Origin: Escherichia phage BME3
DNA: 64,000 bases
Direction: 5' to 3' (one strand)
Sequence record: PP239276.1
This document shows, piece by piece, positions 9,626 to 34,453 of the stretch (position 1 is its first letter; each line of letters starts with the position of its first letter). The notes beneath the pieces are model-generated. The model was not told the DNA's origin and did not search any database. It saw nothing but the letters and a program-made list of their open reading frames with translations. The translations under genes and the position numbers were made by a program.

Positions 9626-9710
9626 ATGGTAGCTAAGGTGAGACTCGAACTCACAATCCCTTGGGGCAATACGTTCTAAGCGTATCGTGTATACCATTCC
9701 ACCACTTAGC
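9626..9710 (-). tRNA. tRNA-Leu (anticodon UAG), type II
   Basis: 85 nt with long variable arm; anticodon arm ATACG/CTTAGAA/CGTAT; T-arm GTGAG/TTCGAGT/CTCAC. Confidence 0.6.
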
Positions 9711-9787
9711 CATAAAAATACACCACTGTAAGAAGCCTCAATGTGCTATTGACAGTTAACCAAGTCTACTCCTTGGATGGTGATATT

Positions 9788-9862
9788 TGGTGCAGAGAGA
9801 TGGTAACGATCCATCCTTTCTACCTTTTCAGGGTAGCACTAATCCGTCTCAGCTATCTCTGC
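9788..9862 (-). tRNA. tRNA-Phe (anticodon GAA)
   Basis: Acceptor GCAGAGA/TCTCTGC, anticodon arm CTACC/CTGAAAA/GGTAG; T-loop ATCGTTA is non-canonical. Confidence 0.5.
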
Positions 9863-9867
9863 AAATT

Positions 9868-9943
9868 TGGTCAGTGCGGCAGGACTCGAACCTGCGACCT
9901 GAAGCGTCCAAGGCTCCCACGCTACCAACTGCGCTACGCACTG
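9868..9943 (-). tRNA. tRNA-Pro (anticodon UGG)
   Basis: Perfect acceptor CAGTGCG/CGCACTG, D-arm GCGC..GCGT, anticodon arm GGAGC/CTTGGAC/GCTTC, T-arm GCAGG/TTCGAGT/CCTGC, CCA encoded. Confidence 0.7.
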
Positions 9944-9950
9944 TAAATCT

Positions 9951-10025
9951 TGGCTGGAGATCTAGGAATCGAACCTAGTCATCACGACTTCAAAGGCCGT
10001 TGCCTTCCCACTAGGCTAATCTCCA
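9951..10025 (-). tRNA. tRNA-Gln (anticodon UUG)
   Basis: Acceptor TGGAGAT/ATCTCCA, anticodon arm ACGGC/CTTTGAA/GTCGT, T-arm CTAGG/TTCGATT/CCTAG. Confidence 0.6.
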
Positions 10026-10124
10026 ATAAAACTAAAAATCACTTAAAAAGAACCGCTAGAGTTTGAAGGAGAAAACCATGAGCGAAAAGAGAAATTTTCT
10101 CTAGCGATTCCATTTAAATAATCT

Positions 10125-10199
10125 TGGAGCGAGTAACAGGACTTGAACCTGCACCTGGAGGGTGGAAACCTCATATGCTACCATTAACACTATACCCGC
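10125..10199 (-). tRNA. tRNA-Gly (anticodon UCC)
   Basis: Acceptor GCGGGTA/TACTCGC, anticodon loop TTTCCAC, T-arm GCAGG/TTCAAGT/CCTGT. Confidence 0.55.
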
Positions 10200-10254
10200 T
10201 TAACAATATTACTCTAACATATTATTAGCCCCTTTGTCAAGAGGCTTTTGATAT

Positions 10255-10584
10255 TTATTTTAAAATAGTAGATGAACCACGTCTGTTTAGATATGCAATA
10301 GTAAAGTCCAAATCACCTATTTCTTCAGGTTCCCACTGACCTTCTAAGCCATAACAAGAACAATGATATGCGTGTACTTCATAAAACAAAGATGTTTTCA
10401 TATCATAAAAATAAACGTGAGATTCACCTTCATAATATGCACAATCATAAGTGGCAGAAAGAATTACAATGTTATCCTTATCTAACTCTACTTCATAATA
10501 TCTTTCAACATCTTCAATATGATCAAAACCATCGAAAACATTGATATTAAAATATTTCTCTAACTCTTTTTCTGTCACATACAC
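10255..10584 (-). CDS. hypothetical protein embedded in tRNA cluster
   Basis: 109-aa ORF with GTG start preceded by AAGGAG RBS; Cys/Tyr/His-rich; no recognisable motif. Confidence 0.5.
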   Translation of the reverse strand: MYVTEKELEKYFNINVFDGFDHIEDVERYYEVELDKDNIVILSATYDCAYYEGESHVYFYDMKTSLFYEVHAYHCSCYGLEGQWEPEEIGDLDFTIAYLNRRGSSTILK

Positions 10585-10601
10585 TCCTTTAGAGTTAAAA
10601 T

Positions 10602-10676
10602 TGGTGCTCCCACAAGGACTCGAACCCTGATAAGTTGCTTACAAGGCAACCGTAATAGCCGTTATACGATAGGAGC
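10602..10676 (-). tRNA. tRNA-Thr (anticodon UGU)
   Basis: Acceptor GCTCCTA/TGGGAGC, anticodon arm GTTGC/CTTGTAA/GCAAC, T-arm CAGGG/TTCGAGT/CCTTG. Confidence 0.65.
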
Positions 10677-10682
10677 AATACT

Positions 10683-10759
10683 TGGACTCGACAGGATTCG
10701 ATACCTGCAATTCCAGAAGCCTCTTGGCGACTGGGGGTTTACCTTAACTCTACAAGTCC
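10683..10759 (-). tRNA. tRNA-like element (non-canonical: 8-nt T-loop, no clear anticodon arm)
   Basis: Acceptor GGACTTG/CGAGTCC and T-stem GCAGG/CCTGT enclose an 8-nt loop TATCGAAT; the interior forms a long hairpin (CCAGTCGCC-AAGA-GGCTTCTGG) rather than D/anticodon arms. Confidence 0.3.
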
Positions 10760-10766
10760 ATAATTC

Positions 10767-10851
10767 TGGCGATGGATCAAGGATTTGAACCTTGCTAGAA
10801 CTTTCGTTCACGGATTAACAGTCCGTCGCCCAACCACTAGGCCAATCCATC
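10767..10851 (-). tRNA. type II (long variable arm) tRNA with GUU (Asn) anticodon; Ser-like body
   Basis: 85 nt; acceptor GATGGAT/ATCCATC, discriminator G, 3-bp D-stem GCC/GGC, anticodon arm ACGGA/CTGTTAA/TCCGT, variable hairpin GAAC-GAAA-GTTC, canonical T-arm CAAGG/TTCAAAT/CCTTG. Confidence 0.5.
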
Positions 10852-10858
10852 TTTAATT

Positions 10859-10945
10859 TGGTGCAGGTAGTTGGACTCGAACCAACGAAGCCCAGAAGGG
10901 CAAGAGATTTACAGTCTCCAGCAATTGCCGCTATGCGATACCTAC
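10859..10945 (-). tRNA. tRNA-Tyr (anticodon GUA), type II
   Basis: 87 nt; acceptor GTAGGTA/TACCTGC, anticodon arm GGAGA/CTGTAAA/TCTCT, long variable arm, T-arm GTTGG/TTCGAGT/CCAAC. Confidence 0.6.
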
Positions 10946-10950
10946 GTGTT

Positions 10951-11026
10951 TGGTACATCGTGAAGGATTCGAACCTTCGACCTTGGAGTTAAAAGCCCCT
11001 TGCTCTACCAACTAAGCTAACGATGT
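10951..11026 (-). tRNA. tRNA-Lys (anticodon UUU)
   Basis: Perfect acceptor ACATCGT/ACGATGT, D-arm GCTT-AGTTGGTA-GAGC, anticodon loop CTTTTAA, T-arm GAAGG/TTCGAAT/CCTTC. Confidence 0.65.
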
Positions 11027-11150
11027 ATAAATTATCTTTAAAATAGCCAGTGTTTGCGGCACTTGACTATGGGATATCGGTAAGATGGTGGGGCCATCTG
11101 CCGAAAGTTTACTCTGTTAAAGTAAGATGACAAGCTACATTAAAGATAAC

Positions 11151-11236
11151 TTGGCGGTAGATGTAGGACTTGAACCTACACGCCGTTTCCGACGACAGTT
11201 TAGCAAACTGTTGTGGCTACCATTTCACCAATCTAC
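11151..11236 (-). tRNA. tRNA-Ser (anticodon GCU), type II
   Basis: 86 nt; acceptor GGTAGAT/ATCTACC, discriminator G, 3-bp D-stem GTG/CAC, anticodon arm ACAGT/TTGCTAA/ACTGT, long variable arm. Confidence 0.65.
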
Positions 11237-11245
11237 CGTTCTTAA

Positions 11246-11446
11246 TTATTCAAAACAACCGGAATCTTTTTGTTCTGCTTTTACCATACGAATATTTTTA
11301 CCATCTTCAGATTGTTGAAGATTAGAATACTCATAAATAACTTTATTATCTACAATCTTAACTCCGGTAACAACCTGTCCAATAGTTTTATAATTCATAA
11401 AGCTCCTAGTTGAATTTGGAGGAAGATAATGGAGTCGAACCATCAC
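11246..11446 (-). CDS. small hypothetical protein
   Basis: Track ORF overlaps tRNA-Ser(UGA) 3' end; AGGAG RBS before internal MNYKTIGQ suggests a ~50-aa product starting near 11398. Confidence 0.3.
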   Translation of the reverse strand: MMVRLHYLPPNSTRSFMNYKTIGQVVTGVKIVDNKVIYEYSNLQQSEDGKNIRMVKAEQKDSGCFE

Positions 11447-11506
11447 CGTATCGCTACAATGGGCCAGGGTTCAAACCTGGTTGCGCACCGCTGCGCCCTA
11501 CCTTCC
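11417..11506 (-). tRNA. tRNA-Ser (anticodon UGA), type II
   Basis: 90 nt; anticodon arm CCAGG/TTTGAAC/CCTGG, long variable arm, T-arm GATGG/TTCGACT/CCATT. Confidence 0.6.
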
Positions 11507-11569
11507 CGTTATCATACTTTAAATCTAACATAAAACTATGTTGCTTGTCAAGTAGTTTTTAAAACTTTT

Positions 11570-11651
11570 TGGCCGGGGTGACAGGATTCGAACCTGCATA
11601 CTCCAATTACTCGGTTAACGCCTGATTAGAAGTCAGGTGAGATACACCCCG
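11570..11651 (-). tRNA. tRNA-like element with Arg-type anticodon arm (UCU); D-arm not resolvable
   Basis: Acceptor CGGGGTG/CACCCCG and canonical T-arm; stem-loop CCTGA/CTTCTAA/TCAGG sits only 7 nt after the acceptor, followed by a 23-nt extra region. Confidence 0.35.
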
Positions 11652-11723
11652 TTTTCACAGTAACTATAACAAAAAACTAAGTAAATGTCAAGATATTTTT
11701 TACTAAATTGCTATTTAAATTGA

Positions 11724-11829
11724 AGCCTAGTTATGGAATCGAACCATATTTCGTATTTAGTTAGACAAAGCGATCTAACATATTTTTCAGGCTTTGATGG
11801 CCTCGGAATTACCAAATACCCTACCAGGC
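11724..11829 (-). tRNA. tRNA-like element (over-long, 8-nt internal loop; possible pseudo-tRNA or structured RNA)
   Basis: Canonical T-arm TATGG/TTCGATT/CCATA and 7-bp acceptor pairing spanning about 106 nt; interior contains hairpin GTTAGA-TCGCTTTG-TCTAAC instead of a canonical anticodon arm. Confidence 0.25.
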
Positions 11830-11831
11830 GT

Positions 11832-11917
11832 TGGTGCAAGTGGAGGGATTCGAACCCTCAATCATTTAAGCGTTGCGTTTTAAGCACAATGTGTATCACC
11901 AATTCCACCACACTTGC
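11832..11917 (-). tRNA. tRNA-Leu (anticodon UAA), type II
   Basis: 86 nt; perfect acceptor GCAAGTG/CACTTGC, anticodon arm TTGTG/CTTAAAA/CGCAA, long variable arm, T-arm GAGGG/TTCGAAT/CCCTC. Confidence 0.6.
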
Positions 11918-11948
11918 ATATAGGAGATGCATAGCACCTCCTTTTAAA

Positions 11949-12024
11949 TGGTGGTTCCCCAGGGTTACAATCCCTGCCCTCGACACTTATGAGGTGTGCG
12001 CTCTCGTCAGTGAGCTATGGAACC
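11949..12024 (-). tRNA. tRNA with CAU anticodon (third CAU species; Met/fMet/Ile2)
   Basis: Acceptor GGTTCCA/GGGAACC, D-arm GCTC..GAGC, anticodon arm CACAC/CTCATAA/GTGTC; T-loop ATTGTAA is non-canonical. Confidence 0.5.
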
Positions 12025-12031
12025 TTGAATA

Positions 12032-12298
12032 TTAAGCATACTGGGTCATTTCACCAGCTTCGCGTTTCTCCAGAAGAACTGTAATCAAAGCAATAGCTGC
12101 TTCTTCTTCGTGAGGAAGCCCCATTTCATCCAGAAGAGCAAGGAAGTCAATTACCAAACTTTCTGTTTTAAGGCTCACGCTACCATTTTCGTTTTCAGTA
12201 AGAACTGATTCAGGTTCAAAAATAAAGATTGCTCCACCTTTATTATCAATCAATACGTGCTTCTCAATCAATTCTTTACCATAAGTACGTTCTGTCAT
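12032..12298 (-). CDS. hypothetical protein
   Basis: 88-aa ORF with AAAGGAG RBS; acidic C-terminal half; no motif recognised. Confidence 0.5.
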   Translation of the reverse strand: MTERTYGKELIEKHVLIDNKGGAIFIFEPESVLTENENGSVSLKTESLVIDFLALLDEMGLPHEEEAAIALITVLLEKREAGEMTQYA

Positions 12299-12478
12299 AG
12301 TTTTCTCCTTTTTGTTTAACTTGTGCTTATCTTAGCAAATAACTAGCTATGTTGTCAACTAGTTTTTACAATATTTTTTCTTGATCTGTAACCTAGTGTA
12401 TAACCACATACAAAAGATACAATAGCAATAAAAACAGATAAGCCAAAAATAATTTCTGTAGACATACTGTTTCCTTAA

Positions 12479-12700
12479 TTATGTGAAATCTAATTCCTCC
12501 TCTGGTGCTGTGTAATTTAGAAGAAGATCAGTTACACTTTGATGTTGATAAACCCTTTCGGGACTGTCATCGAATGCCAAACTTGTACAAATCGAGCATA
12601 GATCCGACTCTTGAATATTACCATTCCTGTCTCTACGGGAGTGATTAGTCAAGTGTCTGTTACAGGCTCGGCAACGAAAATAAAAATTATGTTGTTTCAT
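12479..12700 (-). CDS. small zinc-ribbon protein with NrdB-like C-terminal tail
   Basis: 73 aa; CRAC...CSIC (four Cys); C-terminus ...APEEELDFT shares EEELDF with the C-terminus of the nrdB product in this window. Confidence 0.5.
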   Translation of the reverse strand: MKQHNFYFRCRACNRHLTNHSRRDRNGNIQESDLCSICTSLAFDDSPERVYQHQSVTDLLLNYTAPEEELDFT

Positions 12701-12771
12701 AAATCCTTCGTGAAGCCCATCCAGGGCAGTTATAGGCTCTCCTTACCTTAATCTTATCACGAAGTTTTTAT

Positions 12772-14505
12772 TTAGTCAACCTGGATGGTTCCCATAGTAC
12801 GAAGAACCTCTACGTCAACACGGTTGCGGATATCAGTGAATGTTTCATCACGTCCTTCTACTTGTGGTGTAATAACCTTACCATCTTTGAAGATAACTTG
12901 TAACTCATTGTCTTCATCCTGGATATCTTTAAAAGAAAGATTATCTACAAGAGAAAGATTACCATTAGTATCCTTAACAACCTTAATAAAACCTTTTGCA
13001 GAGCGTTTACCAGGATCAGTTTTAGGCTCCTTACTTACCAAAATTTCGTGTTCACCGATGATGCTACCTGTTGCTTTAACAGCAAAGCCAAAAGTATCTC
13101 GTGTATTGAACTGATAAGTATAACTACCAACACCAAATACAATATTGGAAGCAGCAAAGCCTTTCTTCTTCAGTCGGCGTAAGATTTCGTGTTCTCGTTC
13201 AACAGTAATAGAATCACCATAAATCATACCGATGTGCTGATCAAGAACCTTGTAGCCTTTTCGGTTGATAGTACCGCCAAACACTTCCCAAAGGATTTGA
13301 ATAGAACCTACTGCTTCACAATAAGGAATCTCATAAGTTTCATCAATACAATCAGCAACGCTACAATCCTGAAGAACATTGTAATACTTATTAACATCAG
13401 CCAAATGAACTACTTCAGTGGCTGTCGCAATACCATTATTTAAAAGGTCTTCATAGTTATCAAAAGATTCAACATTGTATCCTGCAACAACTTTAACCGG
13501 ATCTCCTGAATCTGGACGAATAACAAGACGACCATTTCGTGACATAATGGACTCTTTCAATTCTACCAGAATGCGAGTCAAGACAGCCCAGTAATCATAA
13601 GAATCTGCTACATATGAACAAAAACCTTCTGGAACAATTTCTTCAATATAGCGGCGAAGAAACTCTTTCTCTGCTACATAACGAAGCCCATCAACATCAT
13701 CTTTAAGATGTGGGAAATGTTTCTTCAGATCTTCAACAATAGCTCCAATGTTAGTCGTTGCTACTGAATGTTCTGTTGCCGGAATAGAACCTGCAACAAA
13801 TTGATCATAATCAATACCATAATAATCATGCACAGTTTCAATAGCCAGAATATTATCTGTTCCTGTGAAAGATGCCAAATGAGCGATACCACTCTTATAA
13901 CCATCTTCGATATTGCTTAAGCCACGTAGACTAAAATCATGACACTGGAAATTAACGTGATCAATGTTATCACACGTTGCCATCGCATACGCCATAGCGA
14001 TACGCTTATACTGAAAAGCTGCTGTGGCATTAGTCATTGTCTTCCAAGTTTCATCTGACAAGAGTGTTTCAACATAGTTAGTTAACCAAAAGAATTTTTC
14101 TAAAGTGTTATGCACAGTAAACACAGGAACACCAATAGGGCACAAAACACCTTCTGGCAGAGATCGAACTTCTAGCGGAAGATAACCTAAATCGTGCAAT
14201 TCTCCCCAACATTCAGCAGAAGGAGCAGAAGCACCTAATGCATTTTTAGACATACGATAAAATTTATTTACTGCTGCACTACGAGACATTTTAAAGAAGC
14301 TGTCCCACATAGTTACAAGAGCATCAGTAACTGCTCGACGAATACCTAAAACAATAACACCACGTGCTTCACGATCTGCATAATGTGCAAAGTTTTTATC
14401 ATTACGAGGAGTTAAATTAGAGAAAATGAGTTTTGTATTTTGGTTGTACATCTGCTTGTGACCAGGTTTATACCAATCAGTAGCAAAAGGTGCAAAAATA
14501 TTCAT
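12772..14505 (-). CDS. nadV: nicotinamide phosphoribosyltransferase-like protein (NAMPT family; NARP1 Namat-like)
   Basis: 577 aa; NAMPT hallmarks TDWYK, PEGVLCPIGVPVFTVHNT..FWLTNYVET, HDFSLRG, IRPDSGDP. Confidence 0.85.
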   Translation of the reverse strand: MNIFAPFATDWYKPGHKQMYNQNTKLIFSNLTPRNDKNFAHYADREARGVIVLGIRRAVTDALVTMWDSFFKMSRSAAVNKFYRMSKNALGASAPSAECWGELHDLGYLPLEVRSLPEGVLCPIGVPVFTVHNTLEKFFWLTNYVETLLSDETWKTMTNATAAFQYKRIAMAYAMATCDNIDHVNFQCHDFSLRGLSNIEDGYKSGIAHLASFTGTDNILAIETVHDYYGIDYDQFVAGSIPATEHSVATTNIGAIVEDLKKHFPHLKDDVDGLRYVAEKEFLRRYIEEIVPEGFCSYVADSYDYWAVLTRILVELKESIMSRNGRLVIRPDSGDPVKVVAGYNVESFDNYEDLLNNGIATATEVVHLADVNKYYNVLQDCSVADCIDETYEIPYCEAVGSIQILWEVFGGTINRKGYKVLDQHIGMIYGDSITVEREHEILRRLKKKGFAASNIVFGVGSYTYQFNTRDTFGFAVKATGSIIGEHEILVSKEPKTDPGKRSAKGFIKVVKDTNGNLSLVDNLSFKDIQDEDNELQVIFKDGKVITPQVEGRDETFTDIRNRVDVEVLRTMGTIQVD

Positions 14506-14576
14506 AGTTATGTCTCCTTGTTTGTTAGTGTGGGAGTATCTTACTAAGCATACTCCCTATTGTCAACACTTATTAT

Positions 14577-15470
14577 TTAAAAATTCCACACGTATGGAGA
14601 TACAATTTGTTGTTGCAAATCTGACTGATTCTTAACAAGAACACCGGAATCTTCTTGGATGTTATCTTCCCACACATTAAGAGAATGAATGCAGTCAAAG
14701 TGCTCACTTAACTCTTTAAGACCTTTAGAAAAGATACCGTGTGTAACATATAGCTCAATCTTACCTGCGTTACGAGCACGTAGCACTTTAGCCAATTCGA
14801 TAAAAGTTCTACCACCATCACAGATATCATCTACGATCATCAGGTTACGCTTATTGAAATCCTGTACAGAAATGTCTGTACGAACAATAGCACCTGTTGC
14901 AGTATCTCTAACCTTCTCTGCACAGAACACATCTAAAGACATTTTCTTAGATAATTTAAATATTTTCTTAAGAGCACCACCATCAGGACTAACAAGAGCA
15001 AAATTCTCCATACGTAACTTCCACTTTAAAGTTTCGTAAGCAATCTCTTCTTGAGGTATTACATAGAGTCTGTCAAACACTGCTGGAGTAACATCGCTAT
15101 GTGGATCAGCAACGATAACACGTGAGAAATTTAATGAATTAATTATAGAAGCAAATGCTTTAACTCCGAATGCTTCCCCAGGCTCACACACTCTGTCTTG
15201 TCGTGCATACGGTACATACAGCATGAGTAAATCAACACAATATGGTTTATGATATAGCATATTGTCCAATGCATTCTTAGTCATAACCAAAGTCATCAAG
15301 TCTTTAGCAGATCTTACTTCTAAAGAGAGTAAGATTCTGTCTGTAGCATGATTGAAACCTGATAGATTCGTATCTAGTTGAACATGTTGTTCTCCACCAG
15401 AGAATGTAAAGACTTTAACGTCTACATCAGTAACATAACAGTCAACACCATGTAGAATACTAACTTTCAT
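14577..15470 (-). CDS. prs: ribose-phosphate pyrophosphokinase-like protein (PRPP synthetase family; NARP1 Adps-like)
   Basis: 297 aa; Prs motifs PYARQDR, LVSPDGGA, MIVDDICDGGRT; directly upstream of the NAMPT-like gene on the same strand. Confidence 0.85.
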   Translation of the reverse strand: MKVSILHGVDCYVTDVDVKVFTFSGGEQHVQLDTNLSGFNHATDRILLSLEVRSAKDLMTLVMTKNALDNMLYHKPYCVDLLMLYVPYARQDRVCEPGEAFGVKAFASIINSLNFSRVIVADPHSDVTPAVFDRLYVIPQEEIAYETLKWKLRMENFALVSPDGGALKKIFKLSKKMSLDVFCAEKVRDTATGAIVRTDISVQDFNKRNLMIVDDICDGGRTFIELAKVLRARNAGKIELYVTHGIFSKGLKELSEHFDCIHSLNVWEDNIQEDSGVLVKNQSDLQQQIVSPYVWNF

Positions 15471-15880
15471 TATTTATCTCCTTAGTTGAGTTAGGACTTT
15501 ATGTTCTCTACTCTACATACAGATAGATCTAAAGTCAATAGATATTTATTATTTAATTAATAATAAAATTAATAAAGAATCTATTGTTAGTATAGAGCAT
15601 GTATGTTAGTATTATAGACATAACATAGTGCTATATGTAGACTACTCAGTTGTCTGTTAGATCATGTATCACAAGATTAGATAACACCCCCCTCGCTGCG
15701 CTCGGCGTTTTTCGGGGGTTAGGGTAGCATACTTTTTTGAGTTTGTCAACACCTTTTTAGATTATTTTTAAATACAACCTAAACCTCCTAAAAACGATTG
15801 TAACGAGTTTTACTGTGAGGTAAGGTGATTGCATATCTTAGAGGCTATTAGCTCGTTACAGAGCTATACAGGAGGGAATA

Positions 15881-23348: not shown

Positions 23349-24243
23349 GGAGAAAACTATGTTTGCTAAAAATTTCAAATCTTGCGTAACCCTGATTTCT
23401 GGTGATGGTCTGTCTATTTCCGCACTGAACACAGTAACAGATAAACCGCTGGATTTTGTTGTGGCACAGGGTCAACAAGCACATACCATTGGTCTTGTTC
23501 GTTTTGAAGATGATGGTTCCTATGTAAAAGTGTTCTCTGGTTTAGAGGTTATTAAAGTAGGGCAGTCTGTTAAGAAAGTTAACAAGAAGAAAGTTAAACG
23601 CATTCTTAATGAAAAACTCCAGGAGATGGAACAAGAGTTTATTGCTGCAAACCCTACTAAAGAATTCTTCCTGGACAAAGAAAGTAAAAAGGCAATTGAG
23701 GCTGATATCGTGTTTTCTCTGCTCCCAGAAACAGAGGCAGATGATTTCTATAACTATGTTGTTGTAGACACTGAAAACAGTATTACCTACGTTCTTAATG
23801 GTACTAAGAAAATTAGTGAAGATATTGCTGTGTTTCTTCGTGAGGTGTTGGGTACTTTCCCAGTCCTGCCGTTTAGTGTACACGAAGAAGCCATTATTAA
23901 AGGTTTTGATACCATCTTAGAAGAACATGAGGCTGAACGACTGACACTTGGTAATTATATTAAACTTGAAGATTCTGAAGGTGTGGTTGTATGGAGTAAA
24001 GAATCCCTTTATGAATCTCGTGCAGTAGAACTTATGGAAGATGGTAAGCACGTTGTTGCCATTGGCCTGGAATATGACGGTTTCGTTAACTTTATTGTTG
24101 ATAAAGAATTTAAGTTGAGTGGTATTAAATTCCCTAAATACTTTAACGATGAAGAAGGATCTTTTGAAGCATCTGTTCTTCTGTGCTTTAATGAAATCCG
24201 TGGTATTATGCAAGACCTTATCAAGTCAACTATTCAAAAATAA
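23338..24243 (+). CDS. hypothetical protein
   Basis: 301-aa track ORF; GAGGAG RBS before internal Met near 23359; acidic, no motif recognised. Confidence 0.5.
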   Translation: MLFEEKTMFAKNFKSCVTLISGDGLSISALNTVTDKPLDFVVAQGQQAHTIGLVRFEDDGSYVKVFSGLEVIKVGQSVKKVNKKKVKRILNEKLQEMEQEFIAANPTKEFFLDKESKKAIEADIVFSLLPETEADDFYNYVVVDTENSITYVLNGTKKISEDIAVFLREVLGTFPVLPFSVHEEAIIKGFDTILEEHEAERLTLGNYIKLEDSEGVVVWSKESLYESRAVELMEDGKHVVAIGLEYDGFVNFIVDKEFKLSGIKFPKYFNDEEGSFEASVLLCFNEIRGIMQDLIKSTIQK

Positions 24244-24246
24244 TAC

Positions 24247-24276
24247 TTGACTTACTAATTTAATATGTGTTAATAT
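24247..24276 (+). promoter_or_regulatory. sigma70-like promoter (TTGACT-N18-TAATAT)
   Basis: Consensus-like -35 TTGACT and -10 TAATAT upstream of the secreted-protein gene; followed by an imperfect hairpin and AAGGAG RBS. Confidence 0.4.
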
Positions 24277-24530
24277 GCCTACCTACTCAGTTAGGTGGGC
24301 TTTTAAGGAGACACACCATGAAAAAACTTCTTGTCGGTTTACTTTTAGTAATCAGTTCTTATTCTTATGCTGGTCAAATAACTTTAATTAATTCTGGAGA
24401 ACAAGTTTCTGGAAGTACAAAATACTGTTTTTACTCTAACGGTATGTACGACAAGGTTATAGAGGTTTCTGCAAGTCGTCAGTGTCCCTACACACGAACA
24501 TTCTCAACAGAGAGTTCAGATGATGAATAG
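24267..24530 (+). CDS. small secreted protein
   Basis: Internal Met near 24318 with AAGGAG RBS begins MKKLLVGLLLVISSYSYA (signal peptide, SYA-G cleavage site); ~70-aa mature product with 2 Cys. Confidence 0.5.
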   Translation: MLICLPTQLGGLLRRHTMKKLLVGLLLVISSYSYAGQITLINSGEQVSGSTKYCFYSNGMYDKVIEVSASRQCPYTRTFSTESSDDE

Positions 24531-24622
24531 GAGGTAATATTAGCGGTTACATTTTAATCCAACCGGAAGACCTGCACAAATATGTTGACGAGAACACAAT
24601 TCTTGCAATAGACTACGATCAA

Positions 24623-25657
24623 GTGGCGTTCCAAGCGTCTTCAGCTTTAGAACAAAGAAAAATCCACGCTGTACACAAGGCTTCCGGTAATGTAAAAGAG
24701 TTTGAAACAAGAACAGATTTTTGGGGTAAATCTTCAAAAAATATTGGAGGATGGTTAGGAGCACTTAACGCGCAACGCGAAGCTGCTGGTAAGAAGTTGT
24801 TCTCTAGAGAAGATTTTGAAATAAAAGATGTTCAAATAGTCCCAGATAATATTTCTTTTACGTTTCAAGCTGCAAAGACAAAAATAACCCAGATGATGGA
24901 TCACCTAAAACTTCAAAAGTATTGCGGTGTCATCGGGGTAGGAAAAACCTTCCGGCATTCTTTCAAAATGCCAAAAGAATATAAATCAGAACGATCAGAT
25001 TTAAGACCAATCCATTTATCAGATACTAAAGATTATTTAGTTGAAAAACATAACGGTGACGTTGTTACTAGTATTGAGGCAGATGATGCTTTAGAAATCT
25101 ATGGATATGCAGGGTATAAAGCCTACAAGGAAACTGGTAAGTTTTCTCATATTGTAGCATCTATCGACAAAGATAGCTTGCACACACCAAGTTTACTCTT
25201 TAACTTTTATAAAGAGGATGGTGTTTATAAAAATCCTTGTATTATTCTGATTGATGAATCTATCGGTGATATCTGGATCGTAGAAAAAGGTAAGAAAAAA
25301 GAAATTAAGGGTTGGGGTAGTTACTGGTTAGCTTATCAAATGCTAATGGGCGATAAGACAGATAGTATTCGACCTTACCAAGATTTCGATGTTAAGTTTG
25401 GAGATATTACTTGCTTTAATCTTATTTCCAAATGTAAAACACAGGCTGAACTTTTTCAGACAGTTAAAGATCAGTATTATGAATGGTTCCCAGATGGCGT
25501 TAAATTTACTTCTTGGGATGGTGAAGAAGTAGAAATGACAACTGATGAATGGATAGAGACAATTTTTCAGTTGGTATATATGAAACGTTGGGCGAATGAT
25601 GAAACAACTTTTGAAAGTATGCTACAAGCGTATATTTCAGAGCAGGAGGAACATTGA
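24623..25657 (+). CDS. RNase H / flap-endonuclease-like 5'-3' exonuclease (T4 rnh-like)
   Basis: 344 aa; motifs align to T4 RNase H: IEADDALEIYG (EADD), ILIDESIGDIW (DxD), LMGDKTDSIRP (L-GDK-D helix-hairpin-helix region). Confidence 0.65.
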   Translation: MAFQASSALEQRKIHAVHKASGNVKEFETRTDFWGKSSKNIGGWLGALNAQREAAGKKLFSREDFEIKDVQIVPDNISFTFQAAKTKITQMMDHLKLQKYCGVIGVGKTFRHSFKMPKEYKSERSDLRPIHLSDTKDYLVEKHNGDVVTSIEADDALEIYGYAGYKAYKETGKFSHIVASIDKDSLHTPSLLFNFYKEDGVYKNPCIILIDESIGDIWIVEKGKKKEIKGWGSYWLAYQMLMGDKTDSIRPYQDFDVKFGDITCFNLISKCKTQAELFQTVKDQYYEWFPDGVKFTSWDGEEVEMTTDEWIETIFQLVYMKRWANDETTFESMLQAYISEQEEH

Positions 25658-26616
25658 GTAAATTAACAGACGAACAGAAAGCCTTGATTGTATCTATGAA
25701 AGCACAAGGTTATTCTTCGCGTAAGATTGCACAAGAGGTGTTGGGAAGTTCTACTAAGAAGAGCACAGTAAATGATTACTTAGCTCGTGTAAATTCACCA
25801 CATCGCGGTGCTCCGCAAGATAAAGGTGGGCCAGTAATTAAAATTATTGACGTAGAGACAGCACCGGAGATTGTGTATAGCTTCTCACGTTTCAAAGCCT
25901 TTATTGCACCTGAACAAGTTATTCGTCGAGGTTACTTGCTTTCCTATTCATCTGCTGATTTAGAAACAGGAGAAGTAGAAGGTAAAAACCTTAGCAATTA
26001 CCCTCTGTTTGACATAGATCATACAGATGATTGGGAATTATGTCAAGATCTGTGGCACTTGCTTGACGATGCAGATATTGTGATCGCACACAACGGTATT
26101 AAGTTTGATAAGGCTTATATTAACCAACGTTTTGCTTTTCACGGTATGGAGCCACCATCGCACTATGTTGTAATTGATACACTCAAGGCAGCTAAGAAGC
26201 AGTTTGCACTACCTTCTAATGCGCTTAAAGAAATGTGTTTGTATTTTGATACAGAAAACTTTAAACTTGACAATGAAGGTTTTCCTTTGTGGAAAGCATG
26301 TTGTGAAGGAGACAGACACGCCTTCTTCCGTATGCAAACATACAACGATGGTGATGTTGTTTCTCTTAGAGATCTTTACATCAAACTTCGTGCGTGGATT
26401 CCACAACATCCTAACGTATCTGCATTCTATGACGATGAAAAACTTCGTTGTCCTCGTTGCGGTAAAGAGCACCTTGAAGTTGTTCCTGGTAAGGTTTACA
26501 CAACAGCGGTTAGTACATTCCAAGTACTAAGATGCACATCATGTAATAGCCTGTCTCGTGGACGTGTTAATTTGCGTAGCAAAGAGAAGCGTGTAAACAC
26601 TGTTATTGGAATTTAA
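25654..26616 (+). CDS. DEDD-family 3'-5' exonuclease with N-terminal HTH and C-terminal zinc ribbon
   Basis: TTG start with AGGAGG RBS; Exo I IIDVETAP, Exo II VIAHNGIKFDKAYI, Exo III YNDGDVVSLRDLY; C-terminal CPRCGK...CTSCNS. Confidence 0.65.
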   Translation: MSKLTDEQKALIVSMKAQGYSSRKIAQEVLGSSTKKSTVNDYLARVNSPHRGAPQDKGGPVIKIIDVETAPEIVYSFSRFKAFIAPEQVIRRGYLLSYSSADLETGEVEGKNLSNYPLFDIDHTDDWELCQDLWHLLDDADIVIAHNGIKFDKAYINQRFAFHGMEPPSHYVVIDTLKAAKKQFALPSNALKEMCLYFDTENFKLDNEGFPLWKACCEGDRHAFFRMQTYNDGDVVSLRDLYIKLRAWIPQHPNVSAFYDDEKLRCPRCGKEHLEVVPGKVYTTAVSTFQVLRCTSCNSLSRGRVNLRSKEKRVNTVIGI

Positions 26617-26621
26617 TAAAA

Positions 26622-26646
26622 AGGGGCGAAAGCCCCTTTATTTTTG
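26622..26646 (+). terminator. intrinsic terminator
   Basis: AAGGGGCGAAAGCCCCTTTATTTTT; same hairpin sequence recurs at ~39710 and ~51716. Confidence 0.6.
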
Positions 26647-26654
26647 GAGGATTT

Positions 26655-27056
26655 ATGACTACAGCACTGGATATTCAAATTGATGGTGATCACTACAAAC
26701 GTATGCGTATGCAACCTTTGGAACTTGCATATCTAATTGGTGCAACTCCTTGTTTCACTAAGTTAGCTAAGTATGCTTGTCGAAACAAAGGTGATCGTGT
26801 GATCAACCTAAACAAAGCGATTCACGTTATTCATATTGAAAAAGAATTGAGTGATAAGTATTACAATATGTTGTATGAAGCCTACCCTAATCTAAAAAAC
26901 CCTGTAAAAATTGAGTTAGCTAATCAGCTAATTGATTTATACACAGACGATGATCTTGTTCGTAAGGCTTTAAAAGCAATGTATAAAGGTAAGTATATTG
27001 AAGCAGCAGATGCTATTGAACAATTGAAGGAGAGTGTAGATGGCTTCTCACGGTAA
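26655..27056 (+). CDS. DUF3310-like phage protein
   Basis: 133 aa; DHYKRMRMQPLELAYLIGATPCF..LAKYACRNKGD matches the HY..QP.E...G..F..AIKY..R pattern recalled for DUF3310. Confidence 0.4.
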   Translation: MTTALDIQIDGDHYKRMRMQPLELAYLIGATPCFTKLAKYACRNKGDRVINLNKAIHVIHIEKELSDKYYNMLYEAYPNLKNPVKIELANQLIDLYTDDDLVRKALKAMYKGKYIEAADAIEQLKESVDGFSR

Positions 27057-27234
27057 ACAATACGGAGAGGGTGAAGTATATAAAATATACAATAAACGTG
27101 GAGATAAACTCCTATATACAATCACAATCCCAGAAAACATGTGTAAGGCTGGTTTAGACCGTATGCTTTTCTTTAAGTATAACATTCCACCTGGAGATTA
27201 TGTAGCTAAAAAGGTGAGCACTATTGGAAAATAA
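27040..27234 (+). CDS. hypothetical protein
   Basis: 64-aa ORF. Confidence 0.35.
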   Translation: MASHGKQYGEGEVYKIYNKRGDKLLYTITIPENMCKAGLDRMLFFKYNIPPGDYVAKKVSTIGK

Positions 27235-27799
27235 AGAACCTAAAGTTATTTGGGGAGATGGAACACCTTGGAAAACTCAAGCAGCCTTTTATACATATTT
27301 AAGGGGTTGCTTAAGGAAAGCATGGGTGAGACACCCGAATAAGATAAAAAAGATCCAATCTGTACGATTTAAAGCCGATAGGTTGGACAAAGATGGCAAT
27401 GTAGTTTTAGATAAGAAAACAGGCAAACCGAAACAGGTTTGGAATTGTAAATGTGAATTGTGTGGACATACAGGAGGTATGAAAGACTTTCAAGTAGACC
27501 ATATTAATGCAGCAGGTACATTAACCTGTTATGAAGATATCCCAAGTTTTGTTTTACGCCTATTGTATGTAACAGAAGACGACCTGCGTGTAGTTTGTAA
27601 GCAGTGCAACGCTATCCTGGCTTATGCTGACAAGCACGATATGACATTCAGGGAAGCAAAAGCGGAGAAAGAAGCGATAGCTTTATGCCAGTCTAAAAAG
27701 GATAAAAATTGGCTGACGAAGCGCGGAATTTCACCAGAAAGTACAATAACTAAGCGAAGAAAACAGATAGTAAAAATTCTTCTTGACGAAGAGAAATAA
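27224..27799 (+). CDS. HNH homing endonuclease
   Basis: 191 aa; CELCGHTGG...VDHINAAG...CKQCN (HNH with flanking Cys pairs); free-standing between nucleotide-metabolism genes. Confidence 0.6.
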   Translation: MENKEPKVIWGDGTPWKTQAAFYTYLRGCLRKAWVRHPNKIKKIQSVRFKADRLDKDGNVVLDKKTGKPKQVWNCKCELCGHTGGMKDFQVDHINAAGTLTCYEDIPSFVLRLLYVTEDDLRVVCKQCNAILAYADKHDMTFREAKAEKEAIALCQSKKDKNWLTKRGISPESTITKRRKQIVKILLDEEK

Positions 27800-27844
27800 T
27801 AAAGTATTATCGCTCCCACAAATGGGAGCGTTAGAGGAGAAAAT

Positions 27845-28408
27845 ATGGCTAAACTTTATTTCCGATATAGTCCAATGAACAGTGGTAAAAGCACACATCT
27901 GCTACAAACAGCTTGGAACTATAAAGAAAGAAATATGAAAGTTCTTCTTTTAACTTCAGCTTTAGATACCAGATCTGGTTGTGCTATTGCTTCTAGGATA
28001 GGTATTAAAGAGGAAGCAAAACCAGTTAAAACAAAAGAAGATATGCTGGAAATTTATACACAGCTTAAAGAAAATCCAGTAGATGCAGTATTTGTGGACG
28101 AATCACAATTCCTAACTAAAGATATGGTTGACATTCTTGGAGATGTGGTAGATAATTACGATATTCCTGTATTCTGCTATGGACTTAAAACAGATTTTGC
28201 TACAGAATTGTTTGAAGGTTCTGAACGGTTATTAGCCATAGCAGATTCAATTACGGAATTGAAAAGCATTTGTAAATGTGGAAGAAAAGCTATTTTCAAT
28301 GCTAGACTTATCGACTCTAAAGAACAGATTGTTATTGGGGGAGAAGACATTTACGAAACGATGTGTAGAAAATGTTATAACAGGAGAAATAATGCGTCTA
28401 GTATGTGA
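27845..28408 (+). CDS. tdk: thymidine kinase
   Basis: 187 aa; P-loop SPMNSGKST, VDESQF, C-terminal CKCG...CRKC zinc ribbon typical of Tdk. Confidence 0.85.
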   Translation: MAKLYFRYSPMNSGKSTHLLQTAWNYKERNMKVLLLTSALDTRSGCAIASRIGIKEEAKPVKTKEDMLEIYTQLKENPVDAVFVDESQFLTKDMVDILGDVVDNYDIPVFCYGLKTDFATELFEGSERLLAIADSITELKSICKCGRKAIFNARLIDSKEQIVIGGEDIYETMCRKCYNRRNNASSM

Positions 28409-28982: not shown

Positions 28983-28991
28983 GGAGAAATA

Positions 28992-29963: not shown

Positions 29964-29980
29964 TCAACTTAAAATTATAG

Positions 29981-30038: not shown

Positions 30039-30060
30039 TTAAAAGAGAGAAGGAGAATTT

Positions 30061-30471
30061 ATGTCACTAATTAATACAACCATTTGGGCGACCGTAAGTA
30101 TGTCTACCATTAAGGCTACACCGATCTGGAAAGAAATGGCTAAAAAGCACGGAGGAAAAATTCCTCACGAGTATCATAACACTACATTGCGAGCAGCATT
30201 AGTAATGCTTGGTATGTCTACCGATGGACATTATACAGTAGAACGTGGTGTTAATATTCGTAGTAACAACAATCGACGTGTGGTGTTTGCAAATACTACA
30301 TTGTATACTTTCCCAGTTCGACAAGACTATAAATATAAGCGAATCTATCAGGGTGTAGATATTTTGCACTTTGGAGAAGAAGATTTTACAGGTTGGGGTA
30401 GCTCTCATATCAAAATGGAAGACTTCGGAAATGAACATGATCCATCACGAGATGATGATTCTGAATTCTAA
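30061..30471 (+). CDS. hypothetical protein
   Basis: 136-aa ORF with strong RBS. Confidence 0.5.
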   Translation: MSLINTTIWATVSMSTIKATPIWKEMAKKHGGKIPHEYHNTTLRAALVMLGMSTDGHYTVERGVNIRSNNNRRVVFANTTLYTFPVRQDYKYKRIYQGVDILHFGEEDFTGWGSSHIKMEDFGNEHDPSRDDDSEF

Positions 30472-30732: not shown

Positions 30733-30743
30733 TAGGAGAGGAA

Positions 30744-33005
30744 GTGACTCAGTATCTAAGCAAATCTATCCGTTATGTAACAAAAACAAACGGCAAGAAA
30801 GAAGAATTTAATCCAGAAAAACTTCGTAAATGGTCAGAGTTTGCTGCTGGTAAATTAAATTGGTCTGAAATTGAACTCGAAGCTGTTAAACGTTGTTACG
30901 ACGGTGTGCCTACTCGTGATTTACATAAAGCTATGATAGCAGCATGTATTGATAAGAAAGATCAGGCATATAGTGATATGGCAGGTCGGTTACTTCTTGG
31001 TATGATCTATAAACAGGCTCATGGGGGATATCACAATATCCCCTCCCTCCTGGATTTCTACAATATGTCTGTAAGTAAAGGCTATTGGGGAAAAATGGAT
31101 TATACAGAAGAAGAAATTATTGAGATTGGTAAAATTGTCAATCACGATAAAAACCTAACTTATGGTTATTCCGTACTGCGCCAGATGGTTGATAAGTATC
31201 TTGTGAAAGATGCGATCAATGATGTTGTTTTTGAATCACCACAGTTTTTATTCATTGGTGTAGCAATGAAGGTAATGGAAATTCAACCAAAAGATCGCAG
31301 AGTAGAAGACATTAAACGTCTATATACCTACGTAAGTGATCTTAAGATTAATTTACCATCGCCTTATTTAACAACTTTGCGTACTAAGATTAAAGGTAGT
31401 GCTTCTTGTTGTCTGTTTAGAGCAGATGATACAGCAGAATCTTTAGCAATTGCTAACTATCTTGCTCATGAATATACATTGAATAATGCAGGTATTGGTG
31501 TTAACCTACAAACCCGTGCTACAGGACAAGGTGTTAAGAACAACCGTATCGTTCACGGTGGGCTTTTACCATATCTGAAATGGATGGAAACAAGTGTTGG
31601 AGCATCAAAACAAGCAAGTCGTGGTGGAAGTGCAACAGTAACGTTCACAATATTAGAGCCTGACTTTGAAGATCTGGTACGTTTGAAAAACCCAACTACG
31701 GTTAGTGAAAAACGAGTAGATAAACTTGATTACTCTATTGTAGTAAACAATGCTTTCCTGCGACGTGCAGCAAAAGGTAAAGATTGGATGTTAGTCAGTT
31801 ATGACGAAGCACCAGAACTCTATGAGGCGCTTTATAAAAGCGAGGAAGAGTTTGAAGAAGTATATGAAAAAGTTAGTCGCAAACGAATTAAGAAGAAGTT
31901 TGTAAAAGCACGAGATCTTCTGGCAGAAATTATTACACAAAGAGCAGAGACAGGACGTATTTATATGTTCTTTGCGGATAATGTTAATAAGCATACTCCG
32001 TTTAAGGATGTTATTTACCAGTCAAACTTGTGCCAAGAAATTTTCTTACCTACGAAAGCATTTCACAATATGACTGATCTTTTCACAGGTGAGAATACAG
32101 AAGATCAAGAATTGGCATTATGCTTCCTGTCTTCTATTGTAGCTGGTCGTGTTACACCAGAAGAATATGAAGATGTTGCATATTATACCGTTCTAACTAT
32201 TGATAATGTTATTGAAACAATGCAGTATCCGTTTAAACATAACGAAATCACTGCTAAAGCACGTAGGTCTATCGGTGTAGGTATTACAAACCTTGCACAT
32301 TATCTGGCAAGTAATTTTGTTACTTATTCAGATCCTTACGGCAAAAAACTAATTCACGAATTAGCAGAAAGACATTATTACTGGTTAGCAAGAGCTTCTC
32401 TTCGTTTGGCAAAAGAGAAAGGTAATGCAGAATGGATGCATAAAACCAAGTGGCCTGAAGGATGGTTGCCTATTGATACCTACGCTAAAGCTGTAGACGA
32501 TATTGGCAATTTTAAACTTAAAATGGATTGGGAAGGTTTACGACAAGATATCATTGCACAAGGTGGTATCCGAAATAGCGTATTAGCAGCTATTGCTCCA
32601 AATGAGTCCAGTAGTCTTGTAAGTAATACGACTAACTCTGTGTATCCTGTACGAGATACTATAGTTTATAAACAAAGCCAAAAAGGTAATGTTCTGTTTA
32701 TTGTGCCAGATTACGATAAACTAAAAGATATTTACCAATCGGCTTGGGATACGCCAGATAAAGATATGGCTGAAGCATATGGTCTGTTGACTAAATTCTT
32801 AGATCAAGGTGCATCATGTGATAAGTGGATTGACTACTCTAAGATGGAAGGTGGTCGTTTATCCATTAAATCAGAAATGCAATATATCCTTCAGTTTGCA
32901 AAACTTGGTGGTAAATCTTTGTACTATCTAAATAGTAGAACAAAATCGGCAACCTCACTCGCTCAAGAGGATGAAGAATCCGGTTGTGAGGCTTGTAAGA
33001 TGTAA
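30744..33005 (+). CDS. nrdA: ribonucleoside-diphosphate reductase alpha subunit (class Ia)
   Basis: 753 aa; N-terminal ATP-cone (VTKTNGKKEEFNPEKLRKW), large catalytic core, C-terminal redox Cys pair ...ESGCEACKM; GTG start with AGGAGAGG RBS. Confidence 0.9.
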   Translation: MTQYLSKSIRYVTKTNGKKEEFNPEKLRKWSEFAAGKLNWSEIELEAVKRCYDGVPTRDLHKAMIAACIDKKDQAYSDMAGRLLLGMIYKQAHGGYHNIPSLLDFYNMSVSKGYWGKMDYTEEEIIEIGKIVNHDKNLTYGYSVLRQMVDKYLVKDAINDVVFESPQFLFIGVAMKVMEIQPKDRRVEDIKRLYTYVSDLKINLPSPYLTTLRTKIKGSASCCLFRADDTAESLAIANYLAHEYTLNNAGIGVNLQTRATGQGVKNNRIVHGGLLPYLKWMETSVGASKQASRGGSATVTFTILEPDFEDLVRLKNPTTVSEKRVDKLDYSIVVNNAFLRRAAKGKDWMLVSYDEAPELYEALYKSEEEFEEVYEKVSRKRIKKKFVKARDLLAEIITQRAETGRIYMFFADNVNKHTPFKDVIYQSNLCQEIFLPTKAFHNMTDLFTGENTEDQELALCFLSSIVAGRVTPEEYEDVAYYTVLTIDNVIETMQYPFKHNEITAKARRSIGVGITNLAHYLASNFVTYSDPYGKKLIHELAERHYYWLARASLRLAKEKGNAEWMHKTKWPEGWLPIDTYAKAVDDIGNFKLKMDWEGLRQDIIAQGGIRNSVLAAIAPNESSSLVSNTTNSVYPVRDTIVYKQSQKGNVLFIVPDYDKLKDIYQSAWDTPDKDMAEAYGLLTKFLDQGASCDKWIDYSKMEGGRLSIKSEMQYILQFAKLGGKSLYYLNSRTKSATSLAQEDEESGCEACKM

Positions 33006-33381
33006 TGAAACTAGGGGGCTTTGTCCCCCTTTCTTAAGGAGGAATATGCCTACATTAGTTGTATTACCTGGAGCAACACCACAAAGACGCTGGGGAAATT
33101 ATACACTGGTAGATAGTAAAGATTTTACATTCGATTGGTGTTGTCATTATATTGCAGGTTTTCAATTTTCCAGTGTTGAAATATGGGCTTCCAATGATCC
33201 CATAGCTACCTGGTATGCTTTAACCAGGGCAAGGTATGAGGGAGAGGTTACTGTACTACTCACAAAGAGTGTATGGGATGCATTAGAGAAGGCTTACATA
33301 GAGCATGGTATGGAGAGAGAACACATTGATACAATAAAAGCAATGTGCGATATTGTGGAGGATTTAAATGGCAGCAATTAA
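32971..33381 (+). CDS. hypothetical protein between nrdA and nrdB
   Basis: AAGGAGG RBS before internal Met near 33046 (MPTLVVLPGATPQRRW...); ~111 aa, Trp/Cys-rich. Confidence 0.45.
   Translation: MKNPVVRLVRCNETRGLCPPFLRRNMPTLVVLPGATPQRRWGNYTLVDSKDFTFDWCCHYIAGFQFSSVEIWASNDPIATWYALTRARYEGEVTVLLTKSVWDALEKAYIEHGMEREHIDTIKAMCDIVEDLNGSN
33013..33035 (+). promoter_or_regulatory. GC hairpin between nrdA and the next gene (attenuator or terminator)
   Basis: AGGGGGC-TTTG-TCCCCCT hairpin followed by TTCTT. Confidence 0.4.
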
Positions 33382-34453
33382 CTTATACAACGACACTTAC
33401 AAAGAAGGTTTCTACCCTGTGTTTTTGGGAGAACAGTTAGGTATTTTTGATTCTATTAATGTAACATACCCAGAAATGCATCGTCTGTATAAACTACAAA
33501 AACAGCAAGATTGGGATGAAAACGAAGTAAACTTAGATCAGACACGAAAAGATTTCGTAGCTTGTTCTAAAAGCAACTATGATGTTATGATCAAAAACCT
33601 ATCTTTCCAATGGGAAAATGATTCACTTGCTAAATCAATCATCACTTTGTTTGCACCATTTTTAAGCAACAACGAAGCATGTGCAATGATGATGAAGCAA
33701 TCAGAAATGGAAGTTTTACACGCTTTGACATATTCTGAAATTATTCGTCAGTGTATCCCTAATCCAAATGAAGTTATCGATCAGATTATGGAGAACGAAA
33801 GAATCTTCCAGAGGATGGGTATAGTTGAAGAGATAATGAGTGATCTGGCAGAGGCAGGGCATAAGTATGCTCTAGGTCTGATTGAGAAGGATGATAACCT
33901 TCGTCTACTGATTCTGAAAGGAATGATTGCACTTATAGGTCTGGAAGGCATTCAATTCATATCATCTTTTGCTGCAACATTTGCCTTAGCAGAGCAGCAA
34001 CTGTTTGTAGGTGCAGCTAAACTCATTCAAAAAATTATGTTGGATGAACTATTGCACGTTAAAATGGATTATGCTATTATTGATGCACTGCTGAAAGATC
34101 CTGTCTGGAGAAAAGTATACGAAGATAATATCGACGTTCTGACAGAAATTCTTGACACGGTAGTTGGACAAGAGGAAGATTGGTGTGACTATCTGTTTAG
34201 TGAAGGAAGGATTATCGTTGGTGGTAACGCAGAGCTGTTCAAACTTTGGGTTTACTTCAATGCTGCGCCTATCTATCGAAGACTGAAAATGAAACACAAA
34301 TTCCGTGCACCGAAGAAAAGTCCACTGCCTTGGATGGATGTTTGGTTAAATCCAGATCAAATTCAAGCAGCAGCACAGGAGATCCAAATTACAGCTTACA
34401 AACTGAATTCAGCAAATAAAGATGTAAGTGATGACGAGGAGTTAGACTTTTAA
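33368..34453 (+). CDS. nrdB: ribonucleoside-diphosphate reductase beta subunit (class Ia)
   Basis: 361 aa; ferritin-like helices with paired E..H ligand contexts; acidic C-terminal tail ...DVSDDEELDF expected to dock onto NrdA. Confidence 0.8.
   Translation: MAAINLYNDTYKEGFYPVFLGEQLGIFDSINVTYPEMHRLYKLQKQQDWDENEVNLDQTRKDFVACSKSNYDVMIKNLSFQWENDSLAKSIITLFAPFLSNNEACAMMMKQSEMEVLHALTYSEIIRQCIPNPNEVIDQIMENERIFQRMGIVEEIMSDLAEAGHKYALGLIEKDDNLRLLILKGMIALIGLEGIQFISSFAATFALAEQQLFVGAAKLIQKIMLDELLHVKMDYAIIDALLKDPVWRKVYEDNIDVLTEILDTVVGQEEDWCDYLFSEGRIIVGGNAELFKLWVYFNAAPIYRRLKMKHKFRAPKKSPLPWMDVWLNPDQIQAAAQEIQITAYKLNSANKDVSDDEELDF

Follow-up and report, generated by a model that had tools for sequence, protein, structure and literature searches.

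In class Ia ribonucleotide reductases (RNRs), C-terminal peptides of R2 (the beta subunit) are competitive inhibitors, and inhibitory peptides derived from the RNR beta tail include HSV YAGAVVNDL and mammalian Ac-FTLDADF. Eukaryotes also encode small disordered RNR inhibitors (Sml1, Spd1, Hug1, and Dif1) that are proposed or known to bind the large subunit. To our knowledge, these proteins do not act by copying the R2 tail, and we know of no virus or cell encoding a protein that copies the RNR beta tail. An acidic run ending in Asp-Phe is, in addition, the hallmark of SSB-type C-terminal tails; those of SSB (DDDIPF) and T7 gp2.5/gp4 serve as portable docking peptides and use the free carboxylate of the terminal Phe.

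The window analyzed here is a stretch of 64,000 nucleotides from Escherichia phage BME3 (PP239276.1). It contains a minus-strand gene for a 73-aa zinc-ribbon protein (hereafter the mini-protein), whose disordered acidic C-terminus resembles a class Ia beta tail in its Phi-D-F ending and shares EELDF with the NrdB of the same phage. Compared with a genuine class Ia beta tail, however, this tail sits on an unrelated zinc-ribbon protein, its aromatic residue is subterminal, its anchor residues are not conserved, and it does not covary with NrdB; moreover, the mini-protein lacks a conserved upstream Tyr such as the radical-transfer Tyr of beta. No sequence relationship to Sml1, Spd1, Hug1, or Dif1 was found by Pfam, and the mini-protein differs from these inhibitors in having a folded zinc ribbon. 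The tails of SSB and T7 gp2.5/gp4 are likewise disordered, with an aromatic residue placed at the end after a stretch of acidic ones, but in the mini-protein family the terminal Phe carboxylate is replaced by Phe-Asn/Thr/Gly/Ser, and there is neither an OB fold nor a known link to replication. The nearest described families, PHROG families 37033, 10364, 5259, and 23358, consist of phage proteins without assigned function, for which neither the tail motif nor the tRNA synteny described below is recorded. The features of the locus are as follows.

14577-15470, minus strand: prs, first in the minus-strand order of transcription, ahead of nadV.
12772-14505, minus strand: nadV, after prs and followed by the mini-protein gene.
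12751..12779, minus strand: sigma70-like promoter candidate, TTGACT-17-TAAGAT with an upstream TG (a consensus scan match only).
12704..12709, minus strand: Shine-Dalgarno sequence GAAGGA, 3 nt 5' of the ATG.
12479..12700, minus strand: mini-protein gene (ORF list), phrog_37033 member; product of 73 aa, MKQHNFYFRCRACNRHLTNHSRRDRNGNIQESDLCSICTSLAFDDSPERVYQHQSVTDLLLNYTAPEEELDFT.
12587..12673, minus strand: C4 zinc-ribbon core, residues 10-38 (CRAC, 21 residues, CSIC).
12482..12502, minus strand: C-terminal tail EEELDFT, residues 67-73, within a disordered segment.
12032..12465, minus strand: a pair of small ORFs separating the mini-protein gene from the tRNAs (ORF list).
12355-12465, minus strand: the 36-aa hydrophobic ORF, a CDS in the annotation of phage EmilieFrey.
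12032-12298, minus strand: the 88-aa ORF, phrog_15056, also a CDS in the EmilieFrey annotation.
9147..12024, minus strand: array of 16 tRNA genes (ARAGORN), directly downstream of the mini-protein gene region on the same strand.
Minus strand, beyond the tRNA array in the order of transcription: terminase, portal, and capsid genes.

Across positions 12000 to 15500, the window shares 98-99% identity with Escherichia phage phi92 and with about 55 of its relatives in the genus Justusliebigvirus (phi92-like, subfamily Stephanstirmvirinae), the group to which the phage of the window belongs. For genome-wide counts, the rest of its genome was reconstructed from the near-identical phage Antha, yielding a whole-genome equivalent of 1230 ORFs. 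Essentiality data for Bas63 (PhageMaP) were considered and set aside as not applicable, since Bas63 is a Felixounavirus and the Justusliebigvirus of the BASEL collection is Bas61, phage EmilieFrey.

An earlier note, made from the letters of this DNA, had described an ORF at 12479-12700 on the minus strand encoding a 73-aa CxxC...CxxC protein that ends in APEEELDFT, and the ORF list confirmed this description. It is a genuine conserved gene encoding a small protein: the product is 100% identical in 49 phage records, often without any annotated feature, and 67-82% identical in sister lineages. No CDS is annotated for it in the phi92 reference genome. More than 30 further records carrying the 100%-identical gene likewise have no annotated CDS, and in those relatives where it is annotated the start is often set too far upstream, with the Shine-Dalgarno DNA read as 'HEGF'. 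The promoter candidate overlaps the stop codon of nadV, and the ATG of the mini-protein gene lies about 45 nt downstream of it; thus, judging from the sequence, the gene probably has its own sigma70-type promoter, and early expression is probable as well. Strong sigma70-like sites recur on the minus strand between 10200 and 14570 of the window (TTGACA/TTGACT, a 17-18 nt spacer, and TAAGAT/TAGAGT/TATAGT). Such sites, several with an upstream TG, precede nadV, the mini-protein gene, and the 88-aa ORF, and are also present inside the tRNA array. A scan counted 41 sites against 30 +/- 6 in shuffled sequence, and this repetition suggests that the region may contain many independent early promoters.

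The predicted fold class of the mini-protein is a C4 zinc ribbon. Its Cys form two pairs, C10-x2-C13 and C35-x2-C38, and none of the four varies in an alignment of 20 family members. In the AF2 model, short strands at residues 8-9, 16-17, 21-23, and 29-31 form beta-hairpins, with pLDDT of about 80 over residues 11-40, followed by a helix at residues 54-63, and pLDDT falls below 50 for residues 69-73. The net charge is split between the two parts of the chain, being +6 in residues 1-30 and -9 in residues 31-73. Searches of Pfam, NCBIfam, PDB sequences, folds, and viral models for a functional lead returned only generic zinc-finger noise, and all fold-search matches were generic zinc fingers with E>0.01. 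A relation to NrdR was rejected (hhalign probability of 0.5% against E. coli NrdR), and Pfam detected no ATP-cone in the mini-protein. The Ogr/Delta late-gene activators were also rejected, Ogr_Delta being absent among the Pfam matches at E<=1.

At the family level, the mini-protein matches the phrog_37033 profile over its full length (E=1.7e-36, residues 3-69 against profile positions 14-80 of 83) and gives weak matches over the zinc ribbon to phrog_10364, phrog_5259, and phrog_23358. Proteins closely homologous to it are encoded in the phAPEC8, Klebsiella, and Citrobacter Tr1 lineages as well as in metagenomes. Searching 1.8 billion representatives with a profile recovered 18 family proteins, distant members included. 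The family comprises zinc-ribbon proteins of 60-90 aa in phi92/phAPEC8-type phages, Otagovirus-type phages, and related uncultured myoviruses, and its conserved segments are the four Cys, FYFRCxxCN, and AFDxSPExxYxHQxxTD. A match in a Rheinheimera Barba phage was left out of the family (tblastn E=7, Foldseek E=0.04, no tRNA neighbours).

Further examination of gene neighbourhoods revealed a same-strand tRNA array downstream of the mini-protein gene in the window and at 11 other loci (L001, L003, L006, L008-L010, L012, L024, L025, L052, and L053). This arrangement was seen in phAPEC8-type and Klebsiella-type phages, Amme-3, two otagoviruses, three IMG/VR contigs, and several Logan/ENA contigs, including Pseudomonas phages that are otherwise dissimilar in this neighbourhood, and the terminase lies further downstream of the array wherever the contig extends far enough. 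In phAPEC8-type phages, nadV and prs are missing at the site and the order of mini-protein gene, 88-aa ORF, and tRNAs is retained. The tRNA block is the only association that holds across the whole mini-protein family; it could reflect inherited gene order rather than functional coupling. Arrays of the Klebsiella-type lineage also contain a tRNA with a CUA anticodon (38062-38136 in phi1_175008, L003; 5684-5758 in L024; 5208-5282 in L025), which is absent from the window; ARAGORN labels this gene tRNA-Pyl; its practical role would be that of an amber suppressor.

The genes concerned with the RNR part of the comparison lie on the opposite strand of the window.

Plus strand: nucleotide-metabolism block of thymidine kinase, ThyX, the 136-aa ORF, an 86-aa ORF, nrdA, an inserted ORF, and nrdB.
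30061..30471, plus strand: 136-aa homologue of Phi92_gp077 (hereafter gp077), ending in DDDSEF, two genes upstream of nrdA; the third carrier of the tail type.
30744..33005, plus strand: nrdA, class Ia RNR alpha, the proposed receptor (Pfam Ribonuc_red_lgC, Ribonuc_red_lgN, and a weak ATP-cone match); the C-terminus of NrdA is a CEACKM redox tail.
33368..34453, plus strand: nrdB, class Ia RNR beta (Pfam Ribonuc_red_sm), whose product can be aligned with solved class Ia beta chains right to its end.
34430-34450, plus strand: NrdB tail DDEELDF, the C-terminus being ...DVSDDEELDF.

The earlier note had claimed that the mini-protein and NrdB end in the same hexapeptide. The identity holds for the 5-mer EELDF and does not extend to a sixth residue (D-EELDF in NrdB against E-EELDF-T in the mini-protein); nor is the mini-protein tail terminal in the way that of NrdB is, EELDF being subterminal there with an extra Thr after it. 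A 5-mer shared with DDEELDF arose in 0.3% of simulations of 822 random tails drawn with the C-terminal composition of the genome (P about 0.003 against that specific tail). A C-terminal 5-mer shared between any pair of ORFs appeared in 0.99 of simulations and is therefore expected by chance. Indeed, six other ORF pairs in the genome share C-terminal 5-mers, and the two of the six that were checked (CAKLN and YSTLE) each pair a credible gene with a short ORF of spurious look. The gene that follows the mini-protein gene in Klebsiella phage phi1_175008 (36347-36622) ends in ..RKDDEEFKNFA and has DDEEF in common with the NrdB tail of that phage, DDEEFDF; this match is likely due to chance and calibrates the EELDF finding. 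Besides exact identity, we also examined how rare the tail type itself is. The pattern [DE][DE].[DE][FWY].?$ was found in 3 of the 1230 ORFs of the whole-genome equivalent (NrdB, the mini-protein, and the 136-aa ORF at 30061-30471) and in 0 of 1135 ORFs from 165 kb of other phage DNA, so the motif did not prove to be a common acidic terminus among unrelated phage proteins, an outcome that the earlier note had named as one that would count against its proposal.

The tails of NrdB, the mini-protein, and gp077 in the window and its relatives are listed below.

Window and most of the genus: NrdB DDEELDF; mini-protein EEELDFT; gp077 DDDSEF.
phi92 type strain: NrdB DDEELDF; mini-protein EEELDLT; gp077 DDDSEF.
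Klebsiella phi1_175008 and an IMG/VR twin: NrdB DDEEFDF; mini-protein DDEIDTN; gp077 DDGSDF.
Citrobacter Tr1: NrdB EDEELEW; mini-protein DEEADFN; gp077 KDYADF.
phAPEC8-type: NrdB DDEELDFE; mini-protein EDEQLTD; gp077 ADDTNQ.
IMGVR_3300014004: NrdB DDMEFDF; mini-protein EDEQTID; gp077 AEDNSL.
More distant IMG/VR clade: NrdB DEEKFDF or EDEEFDF; mini-protein SPSNNLD; gp077 ADDTEE.
Pseudomonas phage Amme-3: NrdB SAWEDED; mini-protein AMKTPE; gp077 none found.
Metagenomic mini-proteins (mini-protein tail only): EEEIDFN, EEDSDYN, EDDTEFN, EEEVDCS, and DDESDFG.

Within the phi92/Klebsiella/Tr1 group, the mini-protein tail follows [DE]3-x-[DE]-[FY, rarely L/T/C]-[NTGS] in exact register in about nine lineages, and the linker ahead of it varies in both sequence and length. 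Most of the distant family members lack the motif, the ends of distant members being unrelated and mostly acidic. It is well supported that the EEELDFT tail is a clade-specific acidic-aromatic addition whose motif class is that of the NrdB tail. One way to account for it is pure coincidence: the acidic, disordered end would be a generic one that aids solubility or balances the charge of the basic ribbon, with no specific partner, and EELDF would have arisen by drift in one lineage. The chance sharing of C-terminal 5-mers and the DDEEF match in the Klebsiella relative are in keeping with this explanation, as are the mostly acidic ends of the distant members. The tail is also the fastest-evolving and least conserved part of the protein (between-lineage identity of 0.25-0.5, against 0.74-0.78 for the body), and all five substitutions observed within the genus (5/5) fall at A65 or F72. 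However, the last seven residues keep their register (three acidic residues, x, an acidic residue, a mostly aromatic position, and a small polar residue) behind a variable linker, and therefore the pattern is not mere drift; in addition, it occurs in no other ORF of the 165 kb of unrelated phage DNA. Coincidence is a rather unlikely explanation.

The proposal of the earlier note was tail mimicry, in which EEELDF(T) would dock in the groove of NrdA that receives the NrdB C-terminus and the mini-protein would act as a competitor (an RNR brake or timer) or as a zinc-ribbon tether. Several observations are consistent with docking: EELDF is identical to the tail of the cognate NrdB, the motif is a rare one both in this genome and in other phage DNA, the tail is predicted to be disordered (pLDDT <50) as a docking peptide would be, and the pattern shared within the clade, [DE]3-x-[DE]-[FY]-x, is similar to the [DE]3-[LF]-[DE]-[FW] of NrdB. 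The additional Thr could be tolerated as well, given that residues past the aromatic position occur in class Ia beta tails (phAPEC8-type NrdB ends in DFE, and the solved chain 7mdi_E, N. gonorrhoeae-type, runs two residues past GDF). Other observations stand against docking. Both hydrophobic anchors of NrdB, [LF]-[DE]-[FW], are kept in 11 of the 11 lineages examined, whereas the corresponding positions drift in the mini-protein orthologues (L/I/V/A/S/T/Q at the first and F/Y/L/T/C at the aromatic one). In phi92 itself, F72L has changed the tail to EEELDLT beside an unchanged DDEELDF. A small polar residue (T, N, G, or S) stands beyond the aromatic position in all 10 distinct mini-protein tails of the phi92/Klebsiella/Tr1 group, whereas NrdB ends on the aromatic residue in 10 of 11 lineages. 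No cognate covariation with the NrdB tail was evident: a 4x4 tail-similarity matrix, whose power is low given that NrdB tails hardly vary, revealed no preference for the cognate NrdB, and the Tr1 mini-protein tail is closer to the phi92-type NrdB tail than to its own EELEW. Moreover, the motif is missing in several groups in which NrdAB is present (phAPEC8-type phages, IMGVR_3300014004, the IMGVR_3300031418 clade, and Amme-3); in the phAPEC8-type and more distant motif-negative clades, NrdA is 74-88% identical and the NrdB tail is kept. The mini-protein gene is also unlinked to nrdAB, lying about 21 kb away on the opposite strand, and a literature search turned up no description of a phage protein mimicking the NrdB tail. 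These indirect lines of evidence pull both ways, and we rate docking on NrdA as unlikely.

A further observation in favor of an RNR-related partner is the third carrier of the tail type. The gene for gp077 belongs to a cassette of conserved order, gp077-orf86-nrdA-(variable insert)-nrdB, and the consensus tail of its family is DPSRDDGSDF. In the AF2 model of gp077, residues 106-136 are disordered; its folded part does not adopt an OB fold and matched nothing in the PDB. The clades with a DF-ending gp077 coincide with those whose mini-protein has its motif (phi92, Klebsiella-type, and Tr1), and both motifs are absent from the phAPEC8-type clades and the distant IMG/VR clade, with the NrdB tail kept throughout. 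This co-distribution, which rests on one or two evolutionary events, hints that the two tails may share a receptor, possibly an RNR-related one; the independent events are too few for the co-occurrence to count as covariation. A broader version of NrdA docking would make the beta-tail groove of NrdA a small hub in phi92/Klebsiella/Tr1-type phages, at which the mini-protein and gp077 might dock and tune or relocate RNR, but we consider this improbable.

The gap separating nrdA from nrdB resembles a hotspot at which mobile genes insert. In the window (32971-33381, plus strand) it holds a phrog_17458 ORF of roughly 111 aa, which is also present in several clades; in phi92 it holds an HNH endonuclease gene (L059, 1976-2632), and in phAPEC8-type phages it is empty. 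The ORF of this gap was considered as a receptor co-distributing with the motif and was rejected, as it is present in a motif-negative clade and phi92 has the HNH endonuclease gene in its place.

That the tail imitates an SSB-type acidic C-terminus and targets replication or repair proteins of the phage or host is very improbable: the phage does encode a family A DNA polymerase and a primase-helicase, but in the mini-protein a further residue always follows the aromatic position, and no other replication protein of the genome has the motif.

We tentatively favor an adaptor model, in which the function of the mini-protein resides in the zinc ribbon and the tail is an auxiliary docking or masking element; we infer these roles of adaptor and tail as plausible, if still short of probable. 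The model is preferred because the tail is the least conserved part of the protein, the ribbon Cys are invariant, and the synteny with tRNAs is family-wide. The working part of the family would then be the zinc ribbon together with AFDxSPExxYxHQxxTD. The basic zinc-ribbon half would engage the main target, a nucleic acid or a protein that is perhaps tied to the tRNA block, and the acidic-aromatic tail may serve either as a low-affinity docking peptide for a partner or as an intramolecular mask of the basic half. Under the adaptor model, the exact EELDF identity with NrdB would be a lineage-level coincidence inside a shared motif class rather than the mark of a dedicated NrdA competitor. Four points stand against it: the searches gave no target for the zinc ribbon; the tRNA-block synteny could, as noted, be inherited; the tail is too regular in the clade and too rare elsewhere for mere drift; and gp077, encoded beside nrdA, has a similar tail in the same clades, which would fit the shared, possibly RNR-related receptor considered above.

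If the tail does dock on NrdA, the mini-protein would be the first protein-encoded mimic of the RNR beta tail, and it would represent a natural regulation of dNTP supply during infection as well as a ready-made peptide scaffold. Should it not dock, as we think more likely, the more modest yield is that the analysis defines a conserved, probably early gene of phi92-type therapeutic phages that lacks annotation, places its product in a family that consistently accompanies phage tRNA arrays, and flags a rare C-terminal motif present in three proteins of these phages.

Further RNR-type genes were observed in the rest of the genome as represented by phage Antha. The interval 23395-32524 of Antha encodes an anaerobic class III RNR (NrdD and NrdG) and also includes a small 'NrdA-like' ORF and a 316-aa 'ribonucleotide reductase' ORF. 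Beside these RNR-type ORFs lie small ORFs annotated as histidyl-tRNA synthetase and tRNA amidotransferase.
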